DNA from: Escherichia coli
Lineage (GTDB): Bacteria > Pseudomonadota > Gammaproteobacteria > Enterobacterales > Enterobacteriaceae
Direction: 5' to 3' (one strand)
NCBI RefSeq assembly: GCF_003790525.1
Contig: NZ_CP033635.1
DNA: 64,000 bases
The position numbers and the translations under genes were made by a program. Position 1 is the first letter of the stretch. Each line of letters starts with the position of its first letter. The notes beneath the pieces were generated by a model. The model was not told the origin of the DNA and did not search any database. It saw only the letters and a list, made by a program, of their open reading frames with translations. Below, piece by piece: positions 1-61,860 of this stretch.

Positions 1-175
<175 letters not shown>

Positions 176-550
176 TAGCTATGTGGGTGGCTCATCGCTG
201 ACGGCATGTATGCGTAACAGAGCATCTGTATCATCCGTTTGACGTTTTCGTCGGCGATCCTGCCAGCTATTCGGACATCTTGTGAAACCCAAAGGCAGCG
301 GCTGACGAAGCTTATCCGGTATCCTCTCGCAACAAAGGTACATGTACCATCTACTTTTTGGGCGGCCATTGTCGACAGATTCTTAAGTAGAACAGCTAAG
401 TTTAGATTTAGGAAAAAGTTGTTAAAATCAAGCAAATACTTATCATCATCACTTGATTTCGTAAACGCAAAACTACGATACTATTAACAAATTCTTCTAT
501 GCATTCTTACCGAATGTTGGCGGTAGCGTGCTTAATCACTCGGATTTAGT

Positions 551-3500
551 ATGAAAAAAAATTCTTTAAATGTGATTTTGGATACTGTTTTCTCGGCGAA
601 AAGCATCAATGGTGAGAAATCTCATTCTTTTATATCGTATAAATTAGTTAAAGCTGTAGAAAATTTAAGTGGATATGACTTGGATCTTTTCCTCAATCGT
701 GCGATAAACCATCCTAACTTCCCTAGCAATATGGATTTTTCCTTACGAACAGTTTTTACAATTGAACAATCTAACACTATTGAATTTAAAAATTTCATTT
801 CAGAATTGGTGTGGTACAAGCATATTTTCATACGATATAAAAAACACCTTAATGATATATTATCGGCAAAGGCAAGACTTGAGAAGTTAGTTCTTTTCGC
901 AACAGGTAGTGAATGTATAAAATATTTAGATGAAATAGAAAGCTCTTATGGAGTTAGTTTTTGGAGCATTGATGCTCGTCTCTTAATAAATAAAGTTTTG
1001 CTTAACGAAAGCAATGGGTTATATGTTAAATCAATTCTATCTAAAACCCACTATAAACTTACAGAGTTTATGTTACAGCAGCTATTATTTAAGCATCAAG
1101 TACATAACTTTGATGATTTTTCAAAGAACCTTATAAAAATACTAGATGATATGCGCACCACTCAAGATAATGGGTATGCTAGAAATTTAGCTGATGGTAT
1201 TTCATCCTTTTTAATACCTTTAGAGTTTGATAAAAATATAGATCTCAAAAATAGAACCTTAGCACCATTTACCAACCTTCCTTTAATAGATCAATTTATC
1301 ATATTCCAGAGAACTATAAGCGATTTACAACTTCATGGAAATGGTTTAAGAAATAGCGAGTTAAGCTTAATTGCAGAAATTAACAGCTTTATTAAAAATA
1401 ACTATCTCAACAATATTTTAGATGGAAGAGAGCGTAATATAGAGAATATTGATGAACACTATAAAAGTGTTATTCGACGTTATACTATAGGTGATTATAC
1501 TGGGTGTATTTCAGAAATAAATTCAGTTCGAACGCAGAAGACAATTTTGCCATTAATTGAAATATATGCAAAATCCCATGTGTATCTTGATAAGAAAATT
1601 TCAGACTCATGCATATTCAATAAATTAACAAACTGGCTTATAGCAATTATAAAATGCGACAGACGCGCTGGAAAATACATCGATGAATTTGAACTTTTAG
1701 CATCTAAGATATATTTCAATTCAAATTCATCCTCTCTATTCTTCACATTATATAATTTAATAAGTGATAACCATAATAAATTAAACATATCTCGTATAAA
1801 TCTAACCAAAAATGGTTCCTTTGTAACATCCCTTCATTTGAATATAACAATCAAGGAACTATGGACTGAACTTGGAATAAAAGAGAATGAGATACCAAAA
1901 TATCGATTATTTAAATTCAAAGACCTAGCAAATCTATCCTTTGATGAAATCAAAAAACACTACGAAGTATACAATGATAATGTAATAATTCGCTCTGAAT
2001 ATTTAAAAGATTATACTAACTTTTTATTAGAAAATGAAAAGTATGAATTATGCATCCAATTTATAGCTGAAAACTGCATCGGCAACCCCGCAAATTATTA
2101 CTACTTCCCAATCCGAAAAATAATTGATTTTGTAAAAGACAATATTTTTGACTATGCAAGCGTGGCCTTATCTATATTGATAGATATTTTTGTCAAAAGC
2201 ACATCAAACACTTCAAATGAGCTTCTTCTCGAAAGTTATGAGAGTTTAGTAGATATTTCAAATATTAATAGGCCATCTACCCATTATTGCTCTAAGCAAT
2301 TAACTCCATTAGAGCACTATTTCCTTAAGTTTATCTGTATACCTTCCGTGATGGATTCAGACCCTTCATTCACAGGCACGGACGACTTGAAGAAGGAAAG
2401 AATTGCTATTATAGATCTATTATTAAAAGAACACGATGATGCAGATTTATTGAAAGAGAAAGACGAAATTATAGATGAAATATCATTCGAAGAAATAAAA
2501 ACAAAATATGAGACAGGAAAAATATTTGTTGATATAGAAAATTTAAAACGGGCAAAGCTTGAAAGATACAGATATTATTTTGATGCACTTAAGGATTCGC
2601 TTATTCTCGGACTAGAACCACCTGAAGACTTTGCTTTAATTACAGACGATGGGAATATCACAGCCATTCCATCTGGCGATACAAACTCTATAATCCATGA
2701 ACTTCTAAAAGAACTAATCTCCGATTTTGTTAAAAATGAAAATTACGGTCTTGATAAATATTTGAGTGCAGATATACGGCATGGTGTTTTTGAAAATCAA
2801 CTCAGATCAAGTGCTGAAAAATCGCAATTAATAACTGATATGGATGGTACTGGACAGTATTCGAAAAGCAATTTAATTATTGAGACATATCCATTAATTA
2901 ACCCTATTATAAATAACGAAATAGGGACAGCAATAGCTGATTTCTCTTATCACTTTGACATTGAATTGGCTAAAGCCAATTCCTGGTTCAATGTCAAGAC
3001 AATGCTCATAAGTGAATCACAGCAAGGTATGATTGATTTCCTCATTTCTGTTGATATGTTTAATTCATTTAAAGCAGCAGTTTCAAATCAAGCATCTTTT
3101 GAGAAGTTTTTTGACGCTTGTATTAACTTCATGTGGGAAAGAACGTTCAGATGTTTGAATGATATTAAAGAGCGATTGCATTACGAATTTAAGAGGAATA
3201 TTTTAGATTTAATTGCCACTCTTAGGCATCAAATTGATATCTATAGAAGACGTAGTTCCATGAGAGAAATCCAGGAGAAAATTGACCTCTTGGCCGAAAG
3301 CATTAATAAAGAAATTGCAACAGTCTGCGATTGGTTAAATGTACTTGAGTATAACGAGGAGAAAATATATAAAATATCATCCGTGATGCAGGCATGTAGG
3401 AAAACTTTTTTTAATATACACCATTGTTCTGATGATGCTATCGTTTTTGATTCAATGTATCATGATGATGAACCAAAATTATCTTATAAAGAAGCCAAGC

Positions 3501-3826
3501 CTCTAATCACATCAATAATAACAGCGTTAAACAATGCTATGGCCTATGGTAATAAAAAAATCTTTATCAGTATTAAGCCTGAAGAAAAGTCATGGAAAAT
3601 AACCATCAGAAATTTGATAATTGAGACAAAGAACAGAACTACCAACCAAATTTTACAAGAGATTGATGATAAAATAAAACGAGGGGATAATAGTCTAAAT
3701 ATAAAAGAAGGCGGAGCTGGAATATATAAAATATATGATTTATTATGTTCATTACCGCAAAGATTTAATGTGAATCATTGCATCCAAAATAACGAATTCA
3801 TTTTAAATATTGAGATAAAGAAATGA
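551..3826 (+). CDS. Large sensor protein with C-terminal histidine-kinase-like ATPase core (Detocs DtcA-like); N-terminal ~850 aa of unknown, probably helical-repeat, sensing function
   Basis: 1091-aa ORF, strongly AT-rich. C-terminus carries an N-box-like motif (ITALNNAMAYGN, compare EnvZ NAARYGNG) and a G2-like GGAGIY motif; a candidate H-box (ERLHYEFKRNILDL) lies ~100 aa upstream. Stop overlaps next start (ATGA at 3823-3826). Confidence 0.6.
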   Translation: MKKNSLNVILDTVFSAKSINGEKSHSFISYKLVKAVENLSGYDLDLFLNRAINHPNFPSNMDFSLRTVFTIEQSNTIEFKNFISELVWYKHIFIRYKKHLNDILSAKARLEKLVLFATGSECIKYLDEIESSYGVSFWSIDARLLINKVLLNESNGLYVKSILSKTHYKLTEFMLQQLLFKHQVHNFDDFSKNLIKILDDMRTTQDNGYARNLADGISSFLIPLEFDKNIDLKNRTLAPFTNLPLIDQFIIFQRTISDLQLHGNGLRNSELSLIAEINSFIKNNYLNNILDGRERNIENIDEHYKSVIRRYTIGDYTGCISEINSVRTQKTILPLIEIYAKSHVYLDKKISDSCIFNKLTNWLIAIIKCDRRAGKYIDEFELLASKIYFNSNSSSLFFTLYNLISDNHNKLNISRINLTKNGSFVTSLHLNITIKELWTELGIKENEIPKYRLFKFKDLANLSFDEIKKHYEVYNDNVIIRSEYLKDYTNFLLENEKYELCIQFIAENCIGNPANYYYFPIRKIIDFVKDNIFDYASVALSILIDIFVKSTSNTSNELLLESYESLVDISNINRPSTHYCSKQLTPLEHYFLKFICIPSVMDSDPSFTGTDDLKKERIAIIDLLLKEHDDADLLKEKDEIIDEISFEEIKTKYETGKIFVDIENLKRAKLERYRYYFDALKDSLILGLEPPEDFALITDDGNITAIPSGDTNSIIHELLKELISDFVKNENYGLDKYLSADIRHGVFENQLRSSAEKSQLITDMDGTGQYSKSNLIIETYPLINPIINNEIGTAIADFSYHFDIELAKANSWFNVKTMLISESQQGMIDFLISVDMFNSFKAAVSNQASFEKFFDACINFMWERTFRCLNDIKERLHYEFKRNILDLIATLRHQIDIYRRRSSMREIQEKIDLLAESINKEIATVCDWLNVLEYNEEKIYKISSVMQACRKTFFNIHHCSDDAIVFDSMYHDDEPKLSYKEAKPLITSIITALNNAMAYGNKKIFISIKPEEKSWKITIRNLIIETKNRTTNQILQEIDDKIKRGDNSLNIKEGGAGIYKIYDLLCSLPQRFNVNHCIQNNEFILNIEIKK

Positions 3827-4272
3827 AAATTCTTCTTGTTGAGGATATTGAATATAAGCGTGATAAGGTGATCGGTTTACTAGAGTCTATTTCTGCCGAT
3901 GTATCAGTCGATGTAGCTAAATCTTATGTTTCGGCAGTAAATTCCGCAACCAGTAAAACTTATGATCTTATAATATTAGATATGAGCCTTCCCACTTACG
4001 ATAAGGGGCCTAATGAAAATGGAGGTCGCTTCAGAGTGTACGGAGGGAAAGATATTATTCGCAAGTTAATGAGAGGAAAAGAGCATCCAGTAGTTGTGGT
4101 TTTAACACAACATACAACTTTTGGTGAAATTGGTGAGCAAAAAAATACTGACACTCTATCACAAGAGTTGAATGCTTTAATGGGATCAAAATTTATAGGT
4201 ATTGTAAAATATGACTCAACTAAACCTCAATGGAAAGATGAAATAAAAAAAGTCGTACAGGATTTGTTATGA
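3823..4272 (+). CDS. Stand-alone receiver (REC) domain protein (Detocs DtcB-like)
   Basis: 149 aa; KILLVEDIE N-terminal acidic pocket, YDLIILDMSLP with candidate phospho-acceptor Asp53, downstream VVVLT. Start and stop are coupled by ATGA overlaps to both neighbours. Confidence 0.6.
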   Translation: MKILLVEDIEYKRDKVIGLLESISADVSVDVAKSYVSAVNSATSKTYDLIILDMSLPTYDKGPNENGGRFRVYGGKDIIRKLMRGKEHPVVVVLTQHTTFGEIGEQKNTDTLSQELNALMGSKFIGIVKYDSTKPQWKDEIKKVVQDLL

Positions 4273-5432
4273 TTAAAATATTAATAGTTGATGACAATAA
4301 ATCTAGAATTGAAAAGCTAAAATCTAGCTTAACTGAACTCATCACAAAAAACATGATAAGGATTGATGAGAAATATACAAGTGACGCCGCAAAAATCGCG
4401 CTCAAGTTAAATCAATATGATTATTTAATTCTTGATGTCTTTTTACCTAAAAAAGATAACTATAGCCCAGATGAAAGAAATGGATTAGGTCTTTTAAAAC
4501 AAATAAATTCAGATTCTAAATTTTACTCTCCAAAAAAAATAGTTGGCATAACTGCATATCTGAATGATATATCCAGATATGAATCCGAATTCAGAGAATA
4601 TGCTTCAATTATATTCGAGGCTCGACGTAATGATACTGGATGGCTTGAATCACTCAAAAAAATCATTGAAAAGGATGTTGAATCTCAAGTAAGTTATAAT
4701 CTCAATGAAAAAGATAGTGTTTTAATAACAGTACACGGTATAAGAACCTACGCACCTTGGCAAAATACCATAGAAGAAAAAATAACCAATATATCAAATA
4801 AATTTAACTATATAAAATTCAATTATGGTTTTCTAAATATTCTTTGTTTTTTATTCCCTCCGACTAGACATCTATTTGCAAGAAAAATAATCCAAGACAT
4901 ACGAATTACAGTGGAATCAAATAAGAATAAAAGAATTTATATTATTTGTCATAGTTTTGGTACCTACCTTGTATATTGTGCCTTAAGTAAACTGACACAT
5001 ACGGATGCAAAAATTGAATGTTTAATTTTTTCTGGTAGCGTATTAAAACGTACTACCTCATTGAAAACATTAAAGCAACATTGTAATGCAATAATAAATG
5101 ACTGTGCTGTAAGTGATTATATTTTATTACTATGTAAAATGTTAGTCATTGGCTTGGGCGATGCAGGCAGAAAAGGGTTTATTGAGCCAAATGATGGTGT
5201 TTTCATTAACCGCTATTTTAAAGGAGGACATTCAACTTACTTCGAAGATAAAGATTTCATAGAAGTGAACTGGCTTCCTTTAATTTTTGACAATAAAAAT
5301 ATCGCGTCACGAGATGAAAGAAAAAATCATATTTTTTCCGATGTCACCAATGCTTTGCAAAATATAATTGAATATTTAAAAATACCAATATGGTTATTTT
5401 TTTCTTTTTTATTGATAGCACTGGTATTATAA
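4269..5432 (+). CDS. Receiver (REC) domain fused to predicted alpha/beta serine hydrolase (lipase/esterase-like) with C-terminal transmembrane anchor (Detocs DtcC-like effector, non-PNP)
   Basis: 387 aa; N-terminal REC (KILIVDDN, YDYLILDVFLP Asp56). C-terminal part has VLITVHGIRT (oxyanion-hole-like HG), nucleophile elbow ICHSFG (Ser229, nt 4953-4955), later GGHSTYF (candidate catalytic His) and a hydrophobic tail IPIWLFFSFLLIALVL. Confidence 0.6.
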   Translation: MIKILIVDDNKSRIEKLKSSLTELITKNMIRIDEKYTSDAAKIALKLNQYDYLILDVFLPKKDNYSPDERNGLGLLKQINSDSKFYSPKKIVGITAYLNDISRYESEFREYASIIFEARRNDTGWLESLKKIIEKDVESQVSYNLNEKDSVLITVHGIRTYAPWQNTIEEKITNISNKFNYIKFNYGFLNILCFLFPPTRHLFARKIIQDIRITVESNKNKRIYIICHSFGTYLVYCALSKLTHTDAKIECLIFSGSVLKRTTSLKTLKQHCNAIINDCAVSDYILLLCKMLVIGLGDAGRKGFIEPNDGVFINRYFKGGHSTYFEDKDFIEVNWLPLIFDNKNIASRDERKNHIFSDVTNALQNIIEYLKIPIWLFFSFLLIALVL

Positions 5433-5458
5433 TATCACTGCACATTAAAAATCATATT

Positions 5459-5484
5459 GGAGCTTCCCTCATAAAGCTCCAATA
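5459..5484 (+). terminator. Candidate stem-loop downstream of the three-gene operon
   Basis: GGAGCTT-ccctcat-AAGCTCC inverted repeat 27 nt after the stop at 5432; no clear T-run. Confidence 0.3.
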
Positions 5485-5911
5485 TAAAACACCATCATTT
5501 CAATAGTACCTGCAGCTAATTAAAACTAGTCAACCGAAAAAATTAATCACTTTAAACTTTAGTATGCACTTATACTTTCTTAATAATAGAAAAACACTTA
5601 CAAATAAATTAATCATGTCAATCTCCGTAACTACAACCTCGGAAAGTATGTAAACAGGAATCATTACTGAAAAAAACACGATTTCAGCAGAATTCTAGAA
5701 ATATCCTGTGCTGCTGCCGATACCAACTTTCGTATATACTACCCTTCACGTTCCTTCTCGTTTTTATAAAACTATTCATTTATAACTATCAATAGGCATC
5801 ATAACCAATGTAAGTGTAAGTACTGGTGAACGAGTGTCAATGGAGTTAAAAGTATCACTTCATCCTGCTAAATATAAGTTATCCTACGTTTTAATATACT
5901 AGAACTCAAAA

Positions 5912-6877
5912 TTAGAATGGTTTGTTAATATTAATAGATTTACCATTGATATCTTTTGACACCTTAAAAAAATCTATACCTTTTATCCACTGACATAACT
6001 GTTGTAGTGTTTCCATTGCCTGTTCTAACTCATTTTTTTCAATTCTAACGCCCCCATGATGGCTACAGGAATTTAATAATTCCTGAGCTAGAGTGATGTC
6101 ATTCTTCAGCTTATTAGGCAGACCGAGAAAATTAATCACCCTCGACAAACTCCCAAGCATTAACTTTTGATAGTCTTCTTCAAATTCCTTTTCAGCCCTA
6201 ATATTTACTAACATCAAAACATACTCAAGATAACGCCGTGCTGTATTTCCCTTTTCTTGTAACGCATCTCTATCATACTCTTTAATATCACTCAATTCCT
6301 GTAGTAGAAAATCAAACTTAGCTATTGCCAAGTTAAGATTGATGTTATGCATTAGCAATTCGGATGCATGATTGCTAACAGGTACACGATTTGGTGGACG
6401 TATCATTATAGCCGTCGTGTAACAATTTATATTTGGTATCTGTATAAATTCCTCACCGGAACGCGTAACACGTTGAACTTCTACCATATAGTGGCCAAAT
6501 TTATCAATCTCATATGACCGACAACGAGCAGAATATAATTTATTTAGCTTTTTCCTGTCTTGATAATATGATTTTATTAATACAAAAAATGCTCTTTCGT
6601 GCTCAATAATTAAAATAGTCTCTATTGAAGCATGGTACAACCATCCGTTATTCCATGTTAATTCAAGCTGTCTATTTCCATCTTTAAAATCAATTTTAGT
6701 TATACGATCCCAACTTCCTCTATCAATAAAATCGACAATATTGCGCCCAAATCCTTGATAGTTATTTTTAACAATGTGCAATAGTACTGCCTTTATTTTA
6801 TCCCAATCATGAATTTCTTTTTCATATTCACCATTTAATATATTCGTTAAATCACTGTGAAAATTTTCATATGTCAT
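5912..6877 (-). CDS. Hypothetical protein (island cargo, no recognisable motifs)
   Basis: 321-aa ORF with ATG at 6877, AT-rich like the neighbouring operon, directly downstream of the integrase on the same strand. Confidence 0.55.
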   Translation of the reverse strand: MTYENFHSDLTNILNGEYEKEIHDWDKIKAVLLHIVKNNYQGFGRNIVDFIDRGSWDRITKIDFKDGNRQLELTWNNGWLYHASIETILIIEHERAFFVLIKSYYQDRKKLNKLYSARCRSYEIDKFGHYMVEVQRVTRSGEEFIQIPNINCYTTAIMIRPPNRVPVSNHASELLMHNINLNLAIAKFDFLLQELSDIKEYDRDALQEKGNTARRYLEYVLMLVNIRAEKEFEEDYQKLMLGSLSRVINFLGLPNKLKNDITLAQELLNSCSHHGGVRIEKNELEQAMETLQQLCQWIKGIDFFKVSKDINGKSININKPF

Positions 6878-6978
6878 AAGTATCTCTTTTTAGATAAAAT
6901 TGGATTTCGACAAGTAGACGTTGATAACAACAAGACTGGTTAGATAATTTAATCATTGATGCAACGTTTAGCGTTGAA

Positions 6979-8163
6979 TCAATTGACATCATTACCAATT
7001 CTTCCAATGCAATCAGCATACCACTGCATCATCTCCCTCCGCCCTTCCAGATACAAAGCATGGTTGTACGTCCCACGAATCGCATTCTTATCGACATGCG
7101 CAAGCTGGGTTTCAATCCATGCCGTATTGAACCCTTCCTCGTGCAAAATCGTACTCATCGTGTGACGGAAACCATGCCCCGTTACCTTCCCCGTATACCC
7201 AATCCGTTTGAATACCTGATTCATACTCGCTTCACTCATCGTCTTGCGGGGATCATTTCGCCCTGGGAATACCAGTGGATATTGCCCAGATATCACCTTG
7301 AGTTGTTGTACGATTTCCAGCGCTTGGGTAGATAGGGGGACAAGGTGAGGCCGTTTCATCTTCATACGCTCTGCAGGTATTTCCCACACTGCTTTTTCAA
7401 GATCAAACTCACTCCAGAAAGCACCTCGTAGCTCGCCAGTACGAACTCCTGTAAGGATCAGCAGACGAGCGGCAAGAACAACTAACGGGCTTCCTGTGTA
7501 GCCTGCGAGAGCTTTAAAGAAGTCTGGTAACTCCTCAACAGTAAGGAAGGGATAATGCTTCGATTCATGCCCTGACATTGCGCTGGTTAGATCCGCTGCA
7601 GGATTGTATTCCGCACGACCGGTAACGATGGCGTAACGAAAGACTTCACTGCAACGCTGGCGAACCTTCTTGGCCTTCTCTGTCGCGCCACGGCTTTCCA
7701 TTCGACGTAGCACATTCAGCAGAACCAAAGGCTTGATGTCATTCACCGGCAGTTGGCCAATATAAGGGAAAATATCTTTATTGAAGGCTTCGATAATGTC
7801 GGAGGCATAACCTTCTGACCACCGGCTCACCTTCGTTCCGTGCCATTCAAGTGCCACAGCCTGAAACGTATTATTGAGCTGCACATCGCGAACCAACTTT
7901 TCTTCTTTCTTGGCAAACGATGGGTCGATACCTTCGGCCAGCTTTTTCTTGGCTTCATCACGCAGTGCCCTCGCTTGTGCAAGGGACACTGCCGGATAGA
8001 CACCAAAAGCCATACGTTTCTCTTTTCCATTGAAGCGATATTTCATCCGCCAGTATCGAGAACCAGAAGGAACAACTTCAAGATACAAGCCTGCACCATC
8101 TGCTAGCTTGTAGGCTTTCTCTCTGGGTTTAGCAGCATCTACCTGTCGAGCATTAAGCTTCAT
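6979..8163 (-). CDS. Site-specific tyrosine integrase, P4-like family
   Basis: N-terminus MKLNARQVDAAKPREKAYKLADGAGLYLEVVPSGSRYWRMKYRFNGKEKRMAFGVYP is typical of P4-type integrases; C-terminus has GHGFRHT and LAHVDKN...RGTYNH catalytic-region motifs. Start placed at ATG 8163 (AGGGAG 9 nt upstream); lies 164 bp from the tRNA 3' end. Confidence 0.9.
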   Translation of the reverse strand: MKLNARQVDAAKPREKAYKLADGAGLYLEVVPSGSRYWRMKYRFNGKEKRMAFGVYPAVSLAQARALRDEAKKKLAEGIDPSFAKKEEKLVRDVQLNNTFQAVALEWHGTKVSRWSEGYASDIIEAFNKDIFPYIGQLPVNDIKPLVLLNVLRRMESRGATEKAKKVRQRCSEVFRYAIVTGRAEYNPAADLTSAMSGHESKHYPFLTVEELPDFFKALAGYTGSPLVVLAARLLILTGVRTGELRGAFWSEFDLEKAVWEIPAERMKMKRPHLVPLSTQALEIVQQLKVISGQYPLVFPGRNDPRKTMSEASMNQVFKRIGYTGKVTGHGFRHTMSTILHEEGFNTAWIETQLAHVDKNAIRGTYNHALYLEGRREMMQWYADCIGRIGNDVN

Positions 8164-8326
8164 TGGGGGCATCTCCCTGGACCGAACACAGAATGCCCCC
8201 ACTTATGCCCCCAACTGCGACTTGATTTCGGTTGAGTCCAGTTGATAACAGGAGATAAGATACGGGCCAGAAACCGCAGTATACGGGCTTTTAGTTGATT
8301 TCGGTAGACTTGGGAAGAGTTTGAAA

Positions 8327-8402
8327 TGGTGCCGATAATAGGAGTCGAACCTACGACCTTCGCATTACGAATGCGCTGCTCTACCAACTGAGCTATATCG
8401 GC
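8327..8402 (-). tRNA. thrW: tRNA-Thr (anticodon CGU)
   Basis: 76-nt minus-strand sequence GCCGATATAGCTCAGTTGGTAGAGCAGCGCATTCGTAATGCGAAGGTCGTAGGTTCGACTCCTATTATCGGCACCA folds as a cloverleaf with anticodon loop TTCGTAA and CCA end. Confidence 0.9.
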
Positions 8403-16295: not shown

Positions 16296-16910
16296 TTATC
16301 CTTCGATAAAAGCCATCCCTGTGAACGTTCGTCGCGGGTTGCCACGTTCAATCTGGTGATGGAACATTCGCCGCTGCGATTTCAGCGCCGCGCTATTTTC
16401 CTGTTGCTGTTGTTCCAGCTTCCAGGCAATCAGTAATCGCGCCAGCCGTTTGTTAGCATGCTGACTGCGCTCTGACTGAACCTTCACGCTAATACCGGAT
16501 GCCAGATGCGTGGCGCGTACCGCCGAGTCGGTTTTATTGACATGTTGACCGCCCGGCCCCGACGAACGCAGCGTCTCATAACGGATCGCGTCGGATTGTT
16601 CCTGCTCATCAGCGGTAAAACGCCCAATGCCCAGAAACCAGTTTTTGCGCCCATGATGAGGCCGATACGGACTCGGACAAATCCACTGGATAGTGCCACA
16701 CCAGCTTTCGCTTAGAGCCCATGCGTTATCGCCATCCAGAGAAATCAGCGCCGAACGCATTGTGTCAGGATAGCGCCCCGCTTCTGTTTCCAGCACCGTT
16801 ATCGCGACGTCTTGTCGGGTAGCTTCTTTAATCAACCTGTCCAGCGCCTTTTTCACTGCCAGGCAACATTCTTCCGGCCCCTGAGCTGAGGAGAGTTGTA
16901 GCAAGATCAT
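16296..16910 (-). CDS. prfH: Peptide chain release factor homolog PrfH (full length)
   Basis: Translation from [21 protein letters not shown]... contains the release-factor GGQ motif ([16 protein letters not shown]); ATG overlaps the upstream rtcB-like stop (ATGA). Confidence 0.85.
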
Positions 16911-18058
16911 CCTTTTTTCCCTCCACTGTTTTTGAGCGTTAGCACCGGACGCAGTCGCGCGACAGGAATAATTAACCCAGCCTGCACCAGACATTGCACC
17001 ACGCTTTCAGCCGATTTATAAGCTTGTGGCGCTTCTTCAAAGATGAGTTGTTTATCGCGACAAATTACCCGGCTGCCAAGTTCAGTACGTGAGAGCTGCG
17101 TCGCTGTGTATTTCGCTGCCAGACGCCCTTTACACTCGGTGCGCCCCCATTTACGCCCAGCCCCATGCGCCAGCGAATGCAATGTTTCCTCACTCCTGAC
17201 GGGCTGAACCAGCCAGGAGTAATCACCGCGTGAACCGGGAATAATCACCAGACCGTTGTCATCCGGTGTGGCACCTTTACGATGCAACCAGCCCTGTTGA
17301 TCACCGATTCGACACGCGCTAACAAAGTTATGCGCCACATCCAGAACCGAATTACCGTTGGCCTTAATCTGTTGCATTATGCGCAAAGCGATCAGCTGGC
17401 GATTAATACGCGCAAACGCCAGCGCATCATCATGTTCCACAATATAACTTAGCGCGTCGTCACTGCCTTCAGGCAAACCATGATGCGAAAACGAGGCAAT
17501 ATGCCGCTGTAAAATAGACTGGCCCAAACCCCGCGAGCCGCTATGAACCAGCAGTTGCAGATGCTGCGCATCCAGACCTGTCAGTGCAAACAGTTCAGCG
17601 TCGATAATTTCATCAACTTGTTGCAGTTCTGCGAAGTGGTTTCCGCCACCGATGGAACCCAGCGAGCTGCGCCACGGATGCTGTGCTAACGCTGACGGCA
17701 GGTTTTCCTCCAGCCAGCTTTCTTCAGCAACGTCATCCAGCGCAGATAATCGCTTTTCAAACTTATCGGCGTTGTATTTGCGCGCGAAAATATCTGTTTG
17801 CCATAGCGCCATACCGCAGCCGATATCATTGCCGACCAGTGCCGGGTAAAAACGGCCTACGGAGAAGAACGCTGCGCCAATCGGATAGCCGCGTCCGGGG
17901 TGTAAATCTGGCATCCCTACTACGCGTTGCATGTCGGGTAAATTTGCCGTGGTGTGTAATTGTTGGATCGCTGAACTCTCGATCCACAGGTCATCAGATG
18001 CGATGGTAAGTACCGCATCAGATAAGGGACGAATATATTTGCCCATGTACCATTCCAT
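16907..18058 (-). CDS. RtcB-family RNA ligase homolog (ykfJ/rtcB2-type), full length
   Basis: 383-aa ORF translationally coupled to prfH; conserved RtcB-like His/Cys/Gly-rich segments (e.g. [19 protein letters not shown]). Start may be at the first or second ATG. Confidence 0.8.
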
Positions 18059-18236: not shown

Positions 18237-18689
18237 TTAATGTTGCGGTTTATATCGCATATAAAAATTAGTAAACCACGCTCCCCGGCATTCAACGCGC
18301 TGCTGCTTAACTGTCTGAAAACCATAACGTTCAAAAAAGGGTTTTGCGGTTATGCTGGCGTCCACCGTAAGTTCGGATTCAGACTTAATCAAAGGTTTTA
18401 ACAAAGCGCTGGCAACCCCGCGTCGGGTGTATTCAGGTTCAACAAATAACATATCGATATAATGTCCAATGCGGGTAATAAAACCAACCGGTTGTGCATT
18501 AATAACTGCAACCCGCACTTGTGATTTCGCGAGTTTCTCCTTCCAGCGAGATTCGTCAATCTGCGCCCAGGCGGCAATTTGTTGTGGTGAATAATGCTGA
18601 CTGGCGGTCATCGTAACCGCTCTAAGGAAAATAGCGCATAGTTGCTGAAAATCGCCAGGCTGATAGTTTCTTATTTGTATGTTATTCAT
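18237..18689 (-). CDS. yafP: GNAT-family N-acetyltransferase YafP
   Basis: 150-aa translation MNNIQIRNYQPGDFQQLCAIFLRAV... matches YafP of the dinB operon. Confidence 0.85.
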   Translation of the reverse strand: MNNIQIRNYQPGDFQQLCAIFLRAVTMTASQHYSPQQIAAWAQIDESRWKEKLAKSQVRVAVINAQPVGFITRIGHYIDMLFVEPEYTRRGVASALLKPLIKSESELTVDASITAKPFFERYGFQTVKQQRVECRGAWFTNFYMRYKPQH

Positions 18690-18698
18690 AATATAAAT

Positions 18699-19098
18699 TC
18701 AAAAACGCATGCGAAACGCTTCTGCCATTTTCCCAATTTTATGCATTTGGTTGTTATCTCGAGCCAGTTTATGAGGTTCAGGTTTCAGAATGGCAATGAG
18801 CAACCATGCTTGCTCATCAAACGCACCCTGACAATATACCAAATGCGCTTCGTCATTCGTTCTGCTGAATTGGCGCAACTGTGGCGGAAATGGATTATTC
18901 ACATTTGCCAGATGAATATGAGCAACTCGCTCAAATTTGATTAATGGCCAGGTAAACGAGTCGTCGTAGGAGTGCATCGCGACCAAATATATCTGGCAAA
19001 ACACCGTCACGCTTATAGGAAATAAAATCCGCCGTTAACGCATCAAGTTCCTCTGCTGTAAGTTGCAGGCGAATAAGTTTTGTTTTGAATACCCGCAT
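18699..19098 (-). pseudogene. yafO: yafO toxin gene interrupted by a single-base frameshift
   Basis: ATG at 19098, coupled to the yafN stop, encodes MRVFKTKLIRLQLTAEELDALTADFISYKRDGVLPDIFGRDAL, then stops after 13 more codons. The rest of YafO (YDDSFTWPLIKFERVAH...FRMRF) continues in the +1 frame; the frames meet at a CTCC run near 18969-18972. Confidence 0.6.
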
Positions 19099-19100
19099 CC

Positions 19101-19394
19101 TTATTCCTTAAAGTCATTGAAATCATCATCCGTCATATCATTAAGATATTGTTCAGCGCGGCGTGTAATTTCCTCTAATCTTGCGGCACTCGGACGGAAG
19201 CGCGCCTTAACCAGTTTTTTCTCCTCTTGTTCAGCAAGCATGTCCATTAACGCTTCAAATGCGCTGGCACTTAAGAGATATCCTGCGGGGCGATTATTAG
19301 AAAGAACCGCAACCGGTTGATCAATAAAGTATTTAGCTGGGTTTTTACGTAACTCAGTGATATTGACCGATTTTTCAGCGAGAATTCGATGCAT
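19101..19394 (-). CDS. yafN: Antitoxin YafN
   Basis: 97-aa translation MHRILAEKSVNITELRKNPAKYFIDQPVAVLSNNRPAGYLLSASAFEAL... matches YafN. Confidence 0.85.
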   Translation of the reverse strand: MHRILAEKSVNITELRKNPAKYFIDQPVAVLSNNRPAGYLLSASAFEALMDMLAEQEEKKLVKARFRPSAARLEEITRRAEQYLNDMTDDDFNDFKE

Positions 19395-19445: not shown

Positions 19446-20501
19446 TCATAATCCCAGCACCAGTTGTCTTTCCATTTGAGGGTCAAGTAACGTCACATGC
19501 AGCCCCACCAGACGCACACCGCGCCCGCCGCGACGTTCATCCCAGGTTTTACGCGCGGTGGCGATTAGATCAGCTTTATTCAGCCGCGGCCAGACGTGCT
19601 CCTGAGTGGTTTGCTGAAAATCATCAAACTTTAATTTCACCCCCTGGCGAGCAATCAGTAAATCAGGTTTTACCTTTGCCAGACGGCGTTCAAGTTCAGG
19701 ATACAGCCGCTCGATAATCGCTTCACATTCAGACCAGTGATGAATATCTTCCGCCATCGTGCGTTCCACGCCGACGGATTTTCGCAACCGTTCACTGTTA
19801 ACGTCGCGCTCGTCAATCCCCTGACTACGCTCCCACAAAATGCGGCCAAATTTGCCAAAACGTTTGAGCAGAGTCACCAGATCACACTTTTGCACATCAC
19901 CGCAGGTCCGCAGCCCCATCGCTTCCAGTTTTGCCGCCGAGACTTTGCCGACGCCGGGAATTTTTGCCAGCGGTAAGGTTTGCAGAAATGCCGGAACTTC
20001 TGCCGGAGTAATCACAAACTGACCGTTGGGTTTATTCATGTCGGAAGCAATTTTGGCGAGAAACTTTACCGGCGCAACGCCCGCAGATGCCGTCAGTTGC
20101 AGCTCGTTAAAGATCGTCTGACGGATTTCCTTGGCGATGAGGGTCGCAGAACCGTGGCAATGCACACTATCGGTGACGTCGAGATAGGCTTCATCCAGTG
20201 ATAACGGTTCAATGCGCGAGGTATAGCGCGAGAAAATTTCGCGGATATGATTTGAGGCTTCTTTGTAGGCGTCAAAGCGCCCCGGAAGCAAGGTGAGATG
20301 TGGGCATAATTTGAGTGCCATCCCTGTCGGCATAGCGCTGCGTACGCCAAATTTACGCGCGGGATAATTGGCGGTGCTGATCACCCCCCGACGTTCGCGG
20401 CTGCCGCCAATAGCAATAGGGATATCGCGCAGGGCGGGATTGTCGCGCATCTCCACCGCTGCGAAAAAGCAGTCCATATCCACATGAATGATTTTACGCA
20501 T
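19446..20501 (-). CDS. dinB: DNA polymerase IV
   Basis: 351-aa translation [34 protein letters not shown]... matches DinB. Confidence 0.95.
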
Positions 20502-32595: not shown

Positions 32596-32920
<325 letters not shown>

Positions 32921-61599: not shown

Positions 61600-61860
61600 A
61601 TGGCTGCTAACGCGTTTGTTCGCGCCCGAATCGATGAAGATCTGAAGAATCAGGCGGCGGACGTACTGGCCGGGATGGGGCTGACCATCTCTGACCTGGT
61701 TCGCATAACCCTCACAAAGGTCGCGCGTGAAAAGGCATTGCCGTTTGATTTACGCGAGCCTAATCAATTAACTATTCAATCAATCAAAAACAGCGAAGCT
61801 GGCGTTGGTATTCATAAGGCCAAAGACGCCGATGATTTATTTGATAAATTAGGAATTTAA
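61600..61860 (+). CDS. dinJ: Antitoxin DinJ
   Basis: 86-aa translation MAANAFVRARIDEDLKNQAADVLAGMGLTISDLVRITLTKVAREKALPFDL... matches DinJ. Confidence 0.9.
   Translation: MAANAFVRARIDEDLKNQAADVLAGMGLTISDLVRITLTKVAREKALPFDLREPNQLTIQSIKNSEAGVGIHKAKDADDLFDKLGI

Follow-up and report, generated by a model that had tools for sequence, protein, structure and literature searches.

In Escherichia coli K-12, the dinB operon carries the type II toxin–antitoxin module yafN-yafO, in which an intact yafO gene of 399 nt encodes a toxin of 132 aa. The toxin, an mRNA interferase that acts in a ribosome-dependent (translation-dependent) manner, is neutralised by YafN, which also represses the yafNO promoter (PMC2814082; PMC11758553). 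After DNA damage, the LexA-controlled dinB promoter provides additional transcription of the module (PMC2814082; PMC11758553). Orphan antitoxins, which persist intact next to no functional cognate toxin, are reported to be abundant in all E. coli sequence types (PMC10790755). A yafN-yafO match is present in ~2,840 of 5,426 complete E. coli genomes, the module being absent from roughly half of them.

The locus described here lies in a 64,000-nucleotide stretch of the E. coli chromosome (the window), which is colinear, in reverse orientation, with positions 251042-315041 of the SMS-3-5 chromosome (NC_010498.1), a genome reportedly sequenced by Sanger shotgun. Both sequences differ by 6 substitutions and 0 gaps over 64,000 bases; the substitutions are located at window positions 5541, 32196, 36709, 46088, 46900 and 63786, and none of the six falls into dinB-yafNOP or dinJ-yafQ. 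SMS-3-5 belongs to sequence type ST354 (PMC9174282). Over yafN-yafO and a surrounding 6.7-kb locus, the window is identical to SMS-3-5, where the toxin gene is ECSMS35_RS01430, and to 23 other complete genomes. The K-12 module shares with it the position between dinB and yafP, the gene order, the spacing, an intact YafN and ~98% nucleotide identity. In contrast to the K-12 gene, however, yafO of the window is split by a C inserted after codon 43. The locus resembles the orphan antitoxins described across E. coli (PMC10790755) in retaining an antitoxin without a working partner, but it differs from them in that a toxin remnant is still present and the inactivation can be pinned to a single base.

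The dinB operon and the lesion in yafO

The operon is encoded on the minus strand in the order dinB-yafN-yafO-yafP, and yafO is found directly downstream of yafN, as befits a member of the YafO family. Its features are as follows.

19446-20501, minus strand: dinB (DNA polymerase IV), intact, 351 aa, first gene of the operon
19101-19394, minus strand: yafN antitoxin gene, intact, 97 aa, product identical to WP_000554755.1
18699-19098, minus strand: yafO pseudogene, 400 nt versus 399 nt in intact alleles
18931-19098, minus strand: ORF of the truncated product, 43 native YafO codons, 12 out-of-frame codons and the premature TGA at 18931-18933
18969-18970, minus strand: CC dinucleotide holding the inserted C (CACT-CTAC to CACTCCTAC), where frame 0 is left after codon 43
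18699-18968, minus strand: remaining 89 YafO codons (residues 44-132) and the stop codon, in the +1 frame
18237-18689, minus strand: yafP, GNAT acetyltransferase, intact, 150 aa

The yafN stop codon (TAA, 19103-19101) and the yafO ATG at 19098 are separated by a 2-nt spacer, in agreement with the first-pass annotation of this DNA, which had described the toxin start as coupled to the antitoxin stop. The antitoxin itself is intact, as had also been claimed: its 97 residues match NCBIfam NF007300 over positions 1-97 of 97 with 194 bits, and the identical protein WP_000554755.1 also adjoins intact yafO alleles. In NF007300 and in RefSeq, YafN is named a 'type I toxin-antitoxin system antitoxin'. 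This label is a naming error that spreads through annotations; being a protein antitoxin like Phd and YefM (Phd/YefM kind), YafN belongs to type II.

Alignment with the intact alleles of K-12 and AR_0077 reveals one extra C in yafO of the window, converting CACTCTAC into CACTCCTAC. This insertion is the sole difference from AR_0077 over 423 aligned bases spanning yafO, and the sole indel in comparison with K-12, which bears out the +1 frameshift proposed from the first reading. The two frames meet at a CTCC on the minus strand (18972 to 18969), corresponding to GGAG at 18969-18972 on the plus strand, exactly where they had been placed. Translation from the yafO ATG yields 55 aa, the first 43 of which are identical to intact YafO (…GRDAL) and are followed by 12 out-of-frame residues, LRRLVYLAINQI. 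The previous statement that the frame encodes 43 YafO codons and then terminates was therefore correct for the codons and slightly loose for the termination, which comes only after these 12 residues. Residues 44-132 (YDDSFTWPLIKF…RMRF) continue in the +1 frame, as had been noticed, inside an ORF at 18699-19010, and inspection of the remnant at 18699-18968 found no evident start codon or Shine-Dalgarno sequence of its own. At the junction, intact or repaired YafO reads ...GRDALYDDSF..., whereas the frameshifted product reads ...GRDALLRRLVYLAINQI.

In profile searches, the two pieces cover positions 2-45 and 44-132 of NF007377, the NCBIfam equivalog model for YafO, and abut exactly at the lesion. 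The 55-aa N-terminal product reaches 71 bits, below the cut-off of 153 bits, whereas the repaired 132-aa protein is a full-length family match (positions 2-132) with 246.5 bits. In the repaired protein, the Pfam domain YafO_toxin (PF13957) covers residues 27-130 (E = 8.6e-39); 17 of its ~104 residues are kept in the translated product and 87 are lost. The single uninterrupted ORF for the YafO domain that is expected of a functional member is split at codon 43, and the combination of an indel relative to intact orthologues and a premature stop identifies yafO as a frameshifted pseudogene. A sequence search for a solved YafO structure on which the catalytic residues could be placed returned none.

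Several other features of the window were recorded. An intact pair of genes for an rtcB-family RNA ligase and release factor H (prfH) is located just downstream of yafP (16296-18058, minus strand); in K-12, both counterparts, ykfJ and prfH, have become pseudogenes. The lateral-flagella (Flag-2) cluster at ~21500-59900 is complete from lfhA to lafU and carries no pseudogene flags in the SMS-3-5 annotation, while K-12 retains only remnants of lfhA and lafU. Within this cluster, between the gene for a rod-binding protein and flgK, a tandem array of a 117-nt unit was detected (32609-32919; 2.6 copies, 91% matches, REP/BIME-like sequence). At ~1-8400, a tRNA-Thr gene is followed by a tyrosine integrase gene, behind which genes for a 1091-aa hypothetical protein, a response regulator and an alpha/beta hydrolase are found, with an IS3 transposase gene at the window edge; the arrangement resembles a genomic island that has inserted at a tRNA gene beside proBA.

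A second toxin lesion in dinJ-yafQ

The window contains a further toxin–antitoxin pair with a disrupted toxin gene.

61600-61860, plus strand: dinJ antitoxin gene, intact, 86 aa
61863-62140, plus strand: yafQ toxin pseudogene, 1-nt deletion between 61965 and 61966 in comparison with K-12 (CGCTTCTT to CGCTCTT)

The yafQ product contains 36 native residues before it runs out of frame, within an ORF of 69 aa, and RefSeq likewise flags the gene as 'frameshifted'. The first-pass annotation had ascribed to yafQ the same class of lesion as to yafO, which is right in that both are frameshifts; the sign is opposite, since yafQ has lost a nucleotide. In both pairs, the toxin has decayed first, through an indel of 1 nt in the early part of its gene, and the antitoxin is intact, but the pairs differ in the type and the distribution of the lesion: an exact match to the yafQ deletion allele occurs in 159 records of complete E. 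coli genomes, ST648 strains (Ecol_881, 'ST648') among them, versus 24 genomes for the yafO insertion. The yafQ allele also co-occurs with a yafN-yafO region of intact length in some genomes, such as TCM3e1 and strain 20. Because it is more widespread and occurs in genomes with an intact-length yafO, the yafQ lesion is probably the older of the two, and the yafO lesion would have followed later in the SMS-3-5-like clade. In the SMS-3-5 annotation of the 64-kb stretch (~70 CDS), yafO and yafQ, both toxin genes, are the only ones with pseudogene flags.

Origin of the yafO insertion

Allele counts were obtained by searching complete E. coli genomes with a 71-base sequence centred on the insertion. 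The exact 71-mer occurs in 24 of the ~2,840 yafO-bearing genomes and in none of the other ~2,816; each of the 2,822 further records with this region differs from it in one position or more. Among the matches listed, all non-identical ones align with the 71-base query one base shorter, and the nearest intact alleles, retrieved with a 711-base search, are likewise one base shorter than the allele of the window. This comparison, which had been suggested as a check, shows related strains such as AR_0077 and K-12 to be one C shorter and the insertion to be shared. The 24 carriers were isolated from humans, chickens, dogs, a pangolin, and river and surface water. When a 6.7-kb query across motA-lafU-dinB-yafNOP-rtcB-prfH was used to define the haplotype, only these 24 insertion carriers showed at least 99% identity over the locus, the next best match having 97.6%. 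Because insertion and locus haplotype coincide in these 24 genomes, the insertion is inherited and marks one clade or haplotype. The lesion is reproduced in independent assemblies and follows phylogeny, as expected of an inherited loss-of-function allele, and RefSeq applies the label 'frameshifted' to yafO of SMS-3-5 (ECSMS35_RS01430) as well as to that of LS45, a chicken isolate.

These data bear on the suspicion that the extra C is a sequencing or assembly artefact in a strain with an intact 132-aa YafO. Assembly errors are most often single-base indels, and yafQ, in the same window, is frameshifted too. Yet 24 complete genomes, assembled independently of each other, contain this very insertion and correspond exactly to the carriers of one locus haplotype, 159 records have the yafQ allele in common, and the window is gap-free over 64 kb against SMS-3-5. 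Moreover, the site is a change from C to CC and not a homopolymer run, and both flagged lesions in 64 kb hit toxin genes that together span ~680 bp, which would be rare for random errors. An error as the cause of the yafO frameshift is effectively excluded, its probability being close to nil; of the two explanations offered by the first-pass annotation, the homopolymer-type error has to be abandoned and the genuine toxin-inactivating mutation is retained on the basis of 24 genomes, one haplotype and the RefSeq flag. Because the insertion is shared and inherited, raw reads with one fewer C at this site, the observation that would have favoured an error, are very unlikely to exist. A real insertion could still leave some toxin if ribosomes shifted by +1 at CUC-C UA and produced some full-length YafO, so that the toxin is attenuated and not abolished. 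If the extra C is skipped, the wild-type sequence ...L43-Y-D-D-S... is restored exactly, and the zero-frame codons after the insertion, CUA in the A-site and then CGA CGA, are rare codons in E. coli. By stalling ribosomes, they could cause occasional +1 shifts that would leave the ST354 lineage with a strongly attenuated, stress-tunable toxin, a scenario that is judged highly improbable. tRNA-Leu(GAG) on CUC re-pairs poorly with the +1-frame UCC, inspection of the sequence shows no Shine-Dalgarno-like stimulator 3-10 nt upstream, and the site lacks a run long enough for transcriptional slippage. The allele differs from the intact one by a single base, no accessory signals having evolved, and its confinement to 24 of ~2,840 genomes runs counter to programmed frameshifting, for which conservation would be expected. 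Compared with programmed +1 frameshifting of the prfB type, the locus has neither the shift site and stimulator nor the conservation among orthologues, 59 of 60 alleles in a spread sample aligning over the full length without net indel. Programmed frameshifting and slippage were rejected on these grounds, +1 shifting beyond background error rates is very unlikely, and the chance that functional toxin is made by recoding is accordingly put at very low. As a variant, a C-terminal fragment may be produced by reinitiation, for example at an in-frame GTG (Val65) ~30 nt past the premature stop.

A different question is whether the frameshift was positively selected instead of having drifted to fixation. 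In one such scenario, YafO would have become a burden in a multidrug-resistant lineage whose dinB operon is frequently induced by the SOS response, and its loss would have come after that of YafQ. Inactivation in the window affects the two toxins, whereas their antitoxins and all of the ~70 other genes remain intact; the presence of the yafQ lesion in 159 records, some of them with an intact yafO (such as TCM3e1 and strain 20), fits a sequential loss, and DNA damage does drive yafNO transcription from the dinB promoter (PMC2814082). The yafO loss is, however, a single event in a single clade without recurrence: in a spread sample of 60 yafO alleles, compared for alignment length and net indels, 59 align over the full length without net indel and 1 is truncated. 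A general benefit is also difficult to reconcile with the avian pathogenic strain in which deletion of yafNO lowered stress survival and virulence (PMC11758553), and two lesions are too few for statistics. The adaptive pattern is suggestive, and the data are compatible with either neutral or selected loss; positive selection is nevertheless considered unlikely, although it is clearly less remote than recoding or error.

Probable toxin-first decay and its possible consequences

The inherited insertion leaves a truncated toxin with 43 native residues and spares yafN, yafP and dinB. Very probably, a single C was inserted after codon 43 in one real event in the SMS-3-5-like (ST354) lineage and has been passed on vertically since, as an ordinary case of toxin-first decay. 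The event is recent, because the rest of yafO is identical to an intact allele. [quoted passage not shown] The full-length 97-aa yafN next to a disrupted yafO corresponds to an orphan antitoxin, and YafN would persist in this role and as autorepressor of the yafNO promoter. The order of decay is plausible in that loss of the toxin would cost nothing or would even help, whereas an antitoxin lost first would poison the cell; dinJ-yafQ appears to have decayed in the same toxin-first way. The 24 carriers are identical over the locus and hold no divergence by which purifying selection on yafN or further lesions in yafO could be tested.

The insertion may also affect the last gene of the operon. The yafP ATG is located 9 nt past the normal yafO stop and ~240 nt past the premature stop, and no evident Shine-Dalgarno sequence precedes it. 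Because ~240 nt of untranslated RNA now lie upstream of this ATG, yafP expression may fall through lost translational coupling or Rho-dependent polarity.

An anti-addiction role of YafN against plasmid-borne yafNO was also considered and is unsupported. The 14 matches to yafNO in a plasmid collection are K-12 F' plasmids with the chromosomal region, mislabelled chromosomes and small fragments.

A literature search found no earlier report of this yafO frameshift, and the absence of papers on the allele reflects its ordinariness. The finding is already known in the sense that RefSeq annotates the identical allele as a frameshifted pseudogene; it has little importance beyond good annotation and opens no new question. 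The yafO lesion nevertheless genuinely marks the SMS-3-5-like (ST354) lineage of E. coli instead of resulting from misassembly. This lineage has lost YafO and YafQ, two of the classic mRNA interferases that depend on the ribosome, but keeps both antitoxins. It provides a small, clean example of the toxin-first decay of chromosomal toxin–antitoxin modules, and a caution for studies that score toxin–antitoxin systems as present from antitoxin or domain matches alone.
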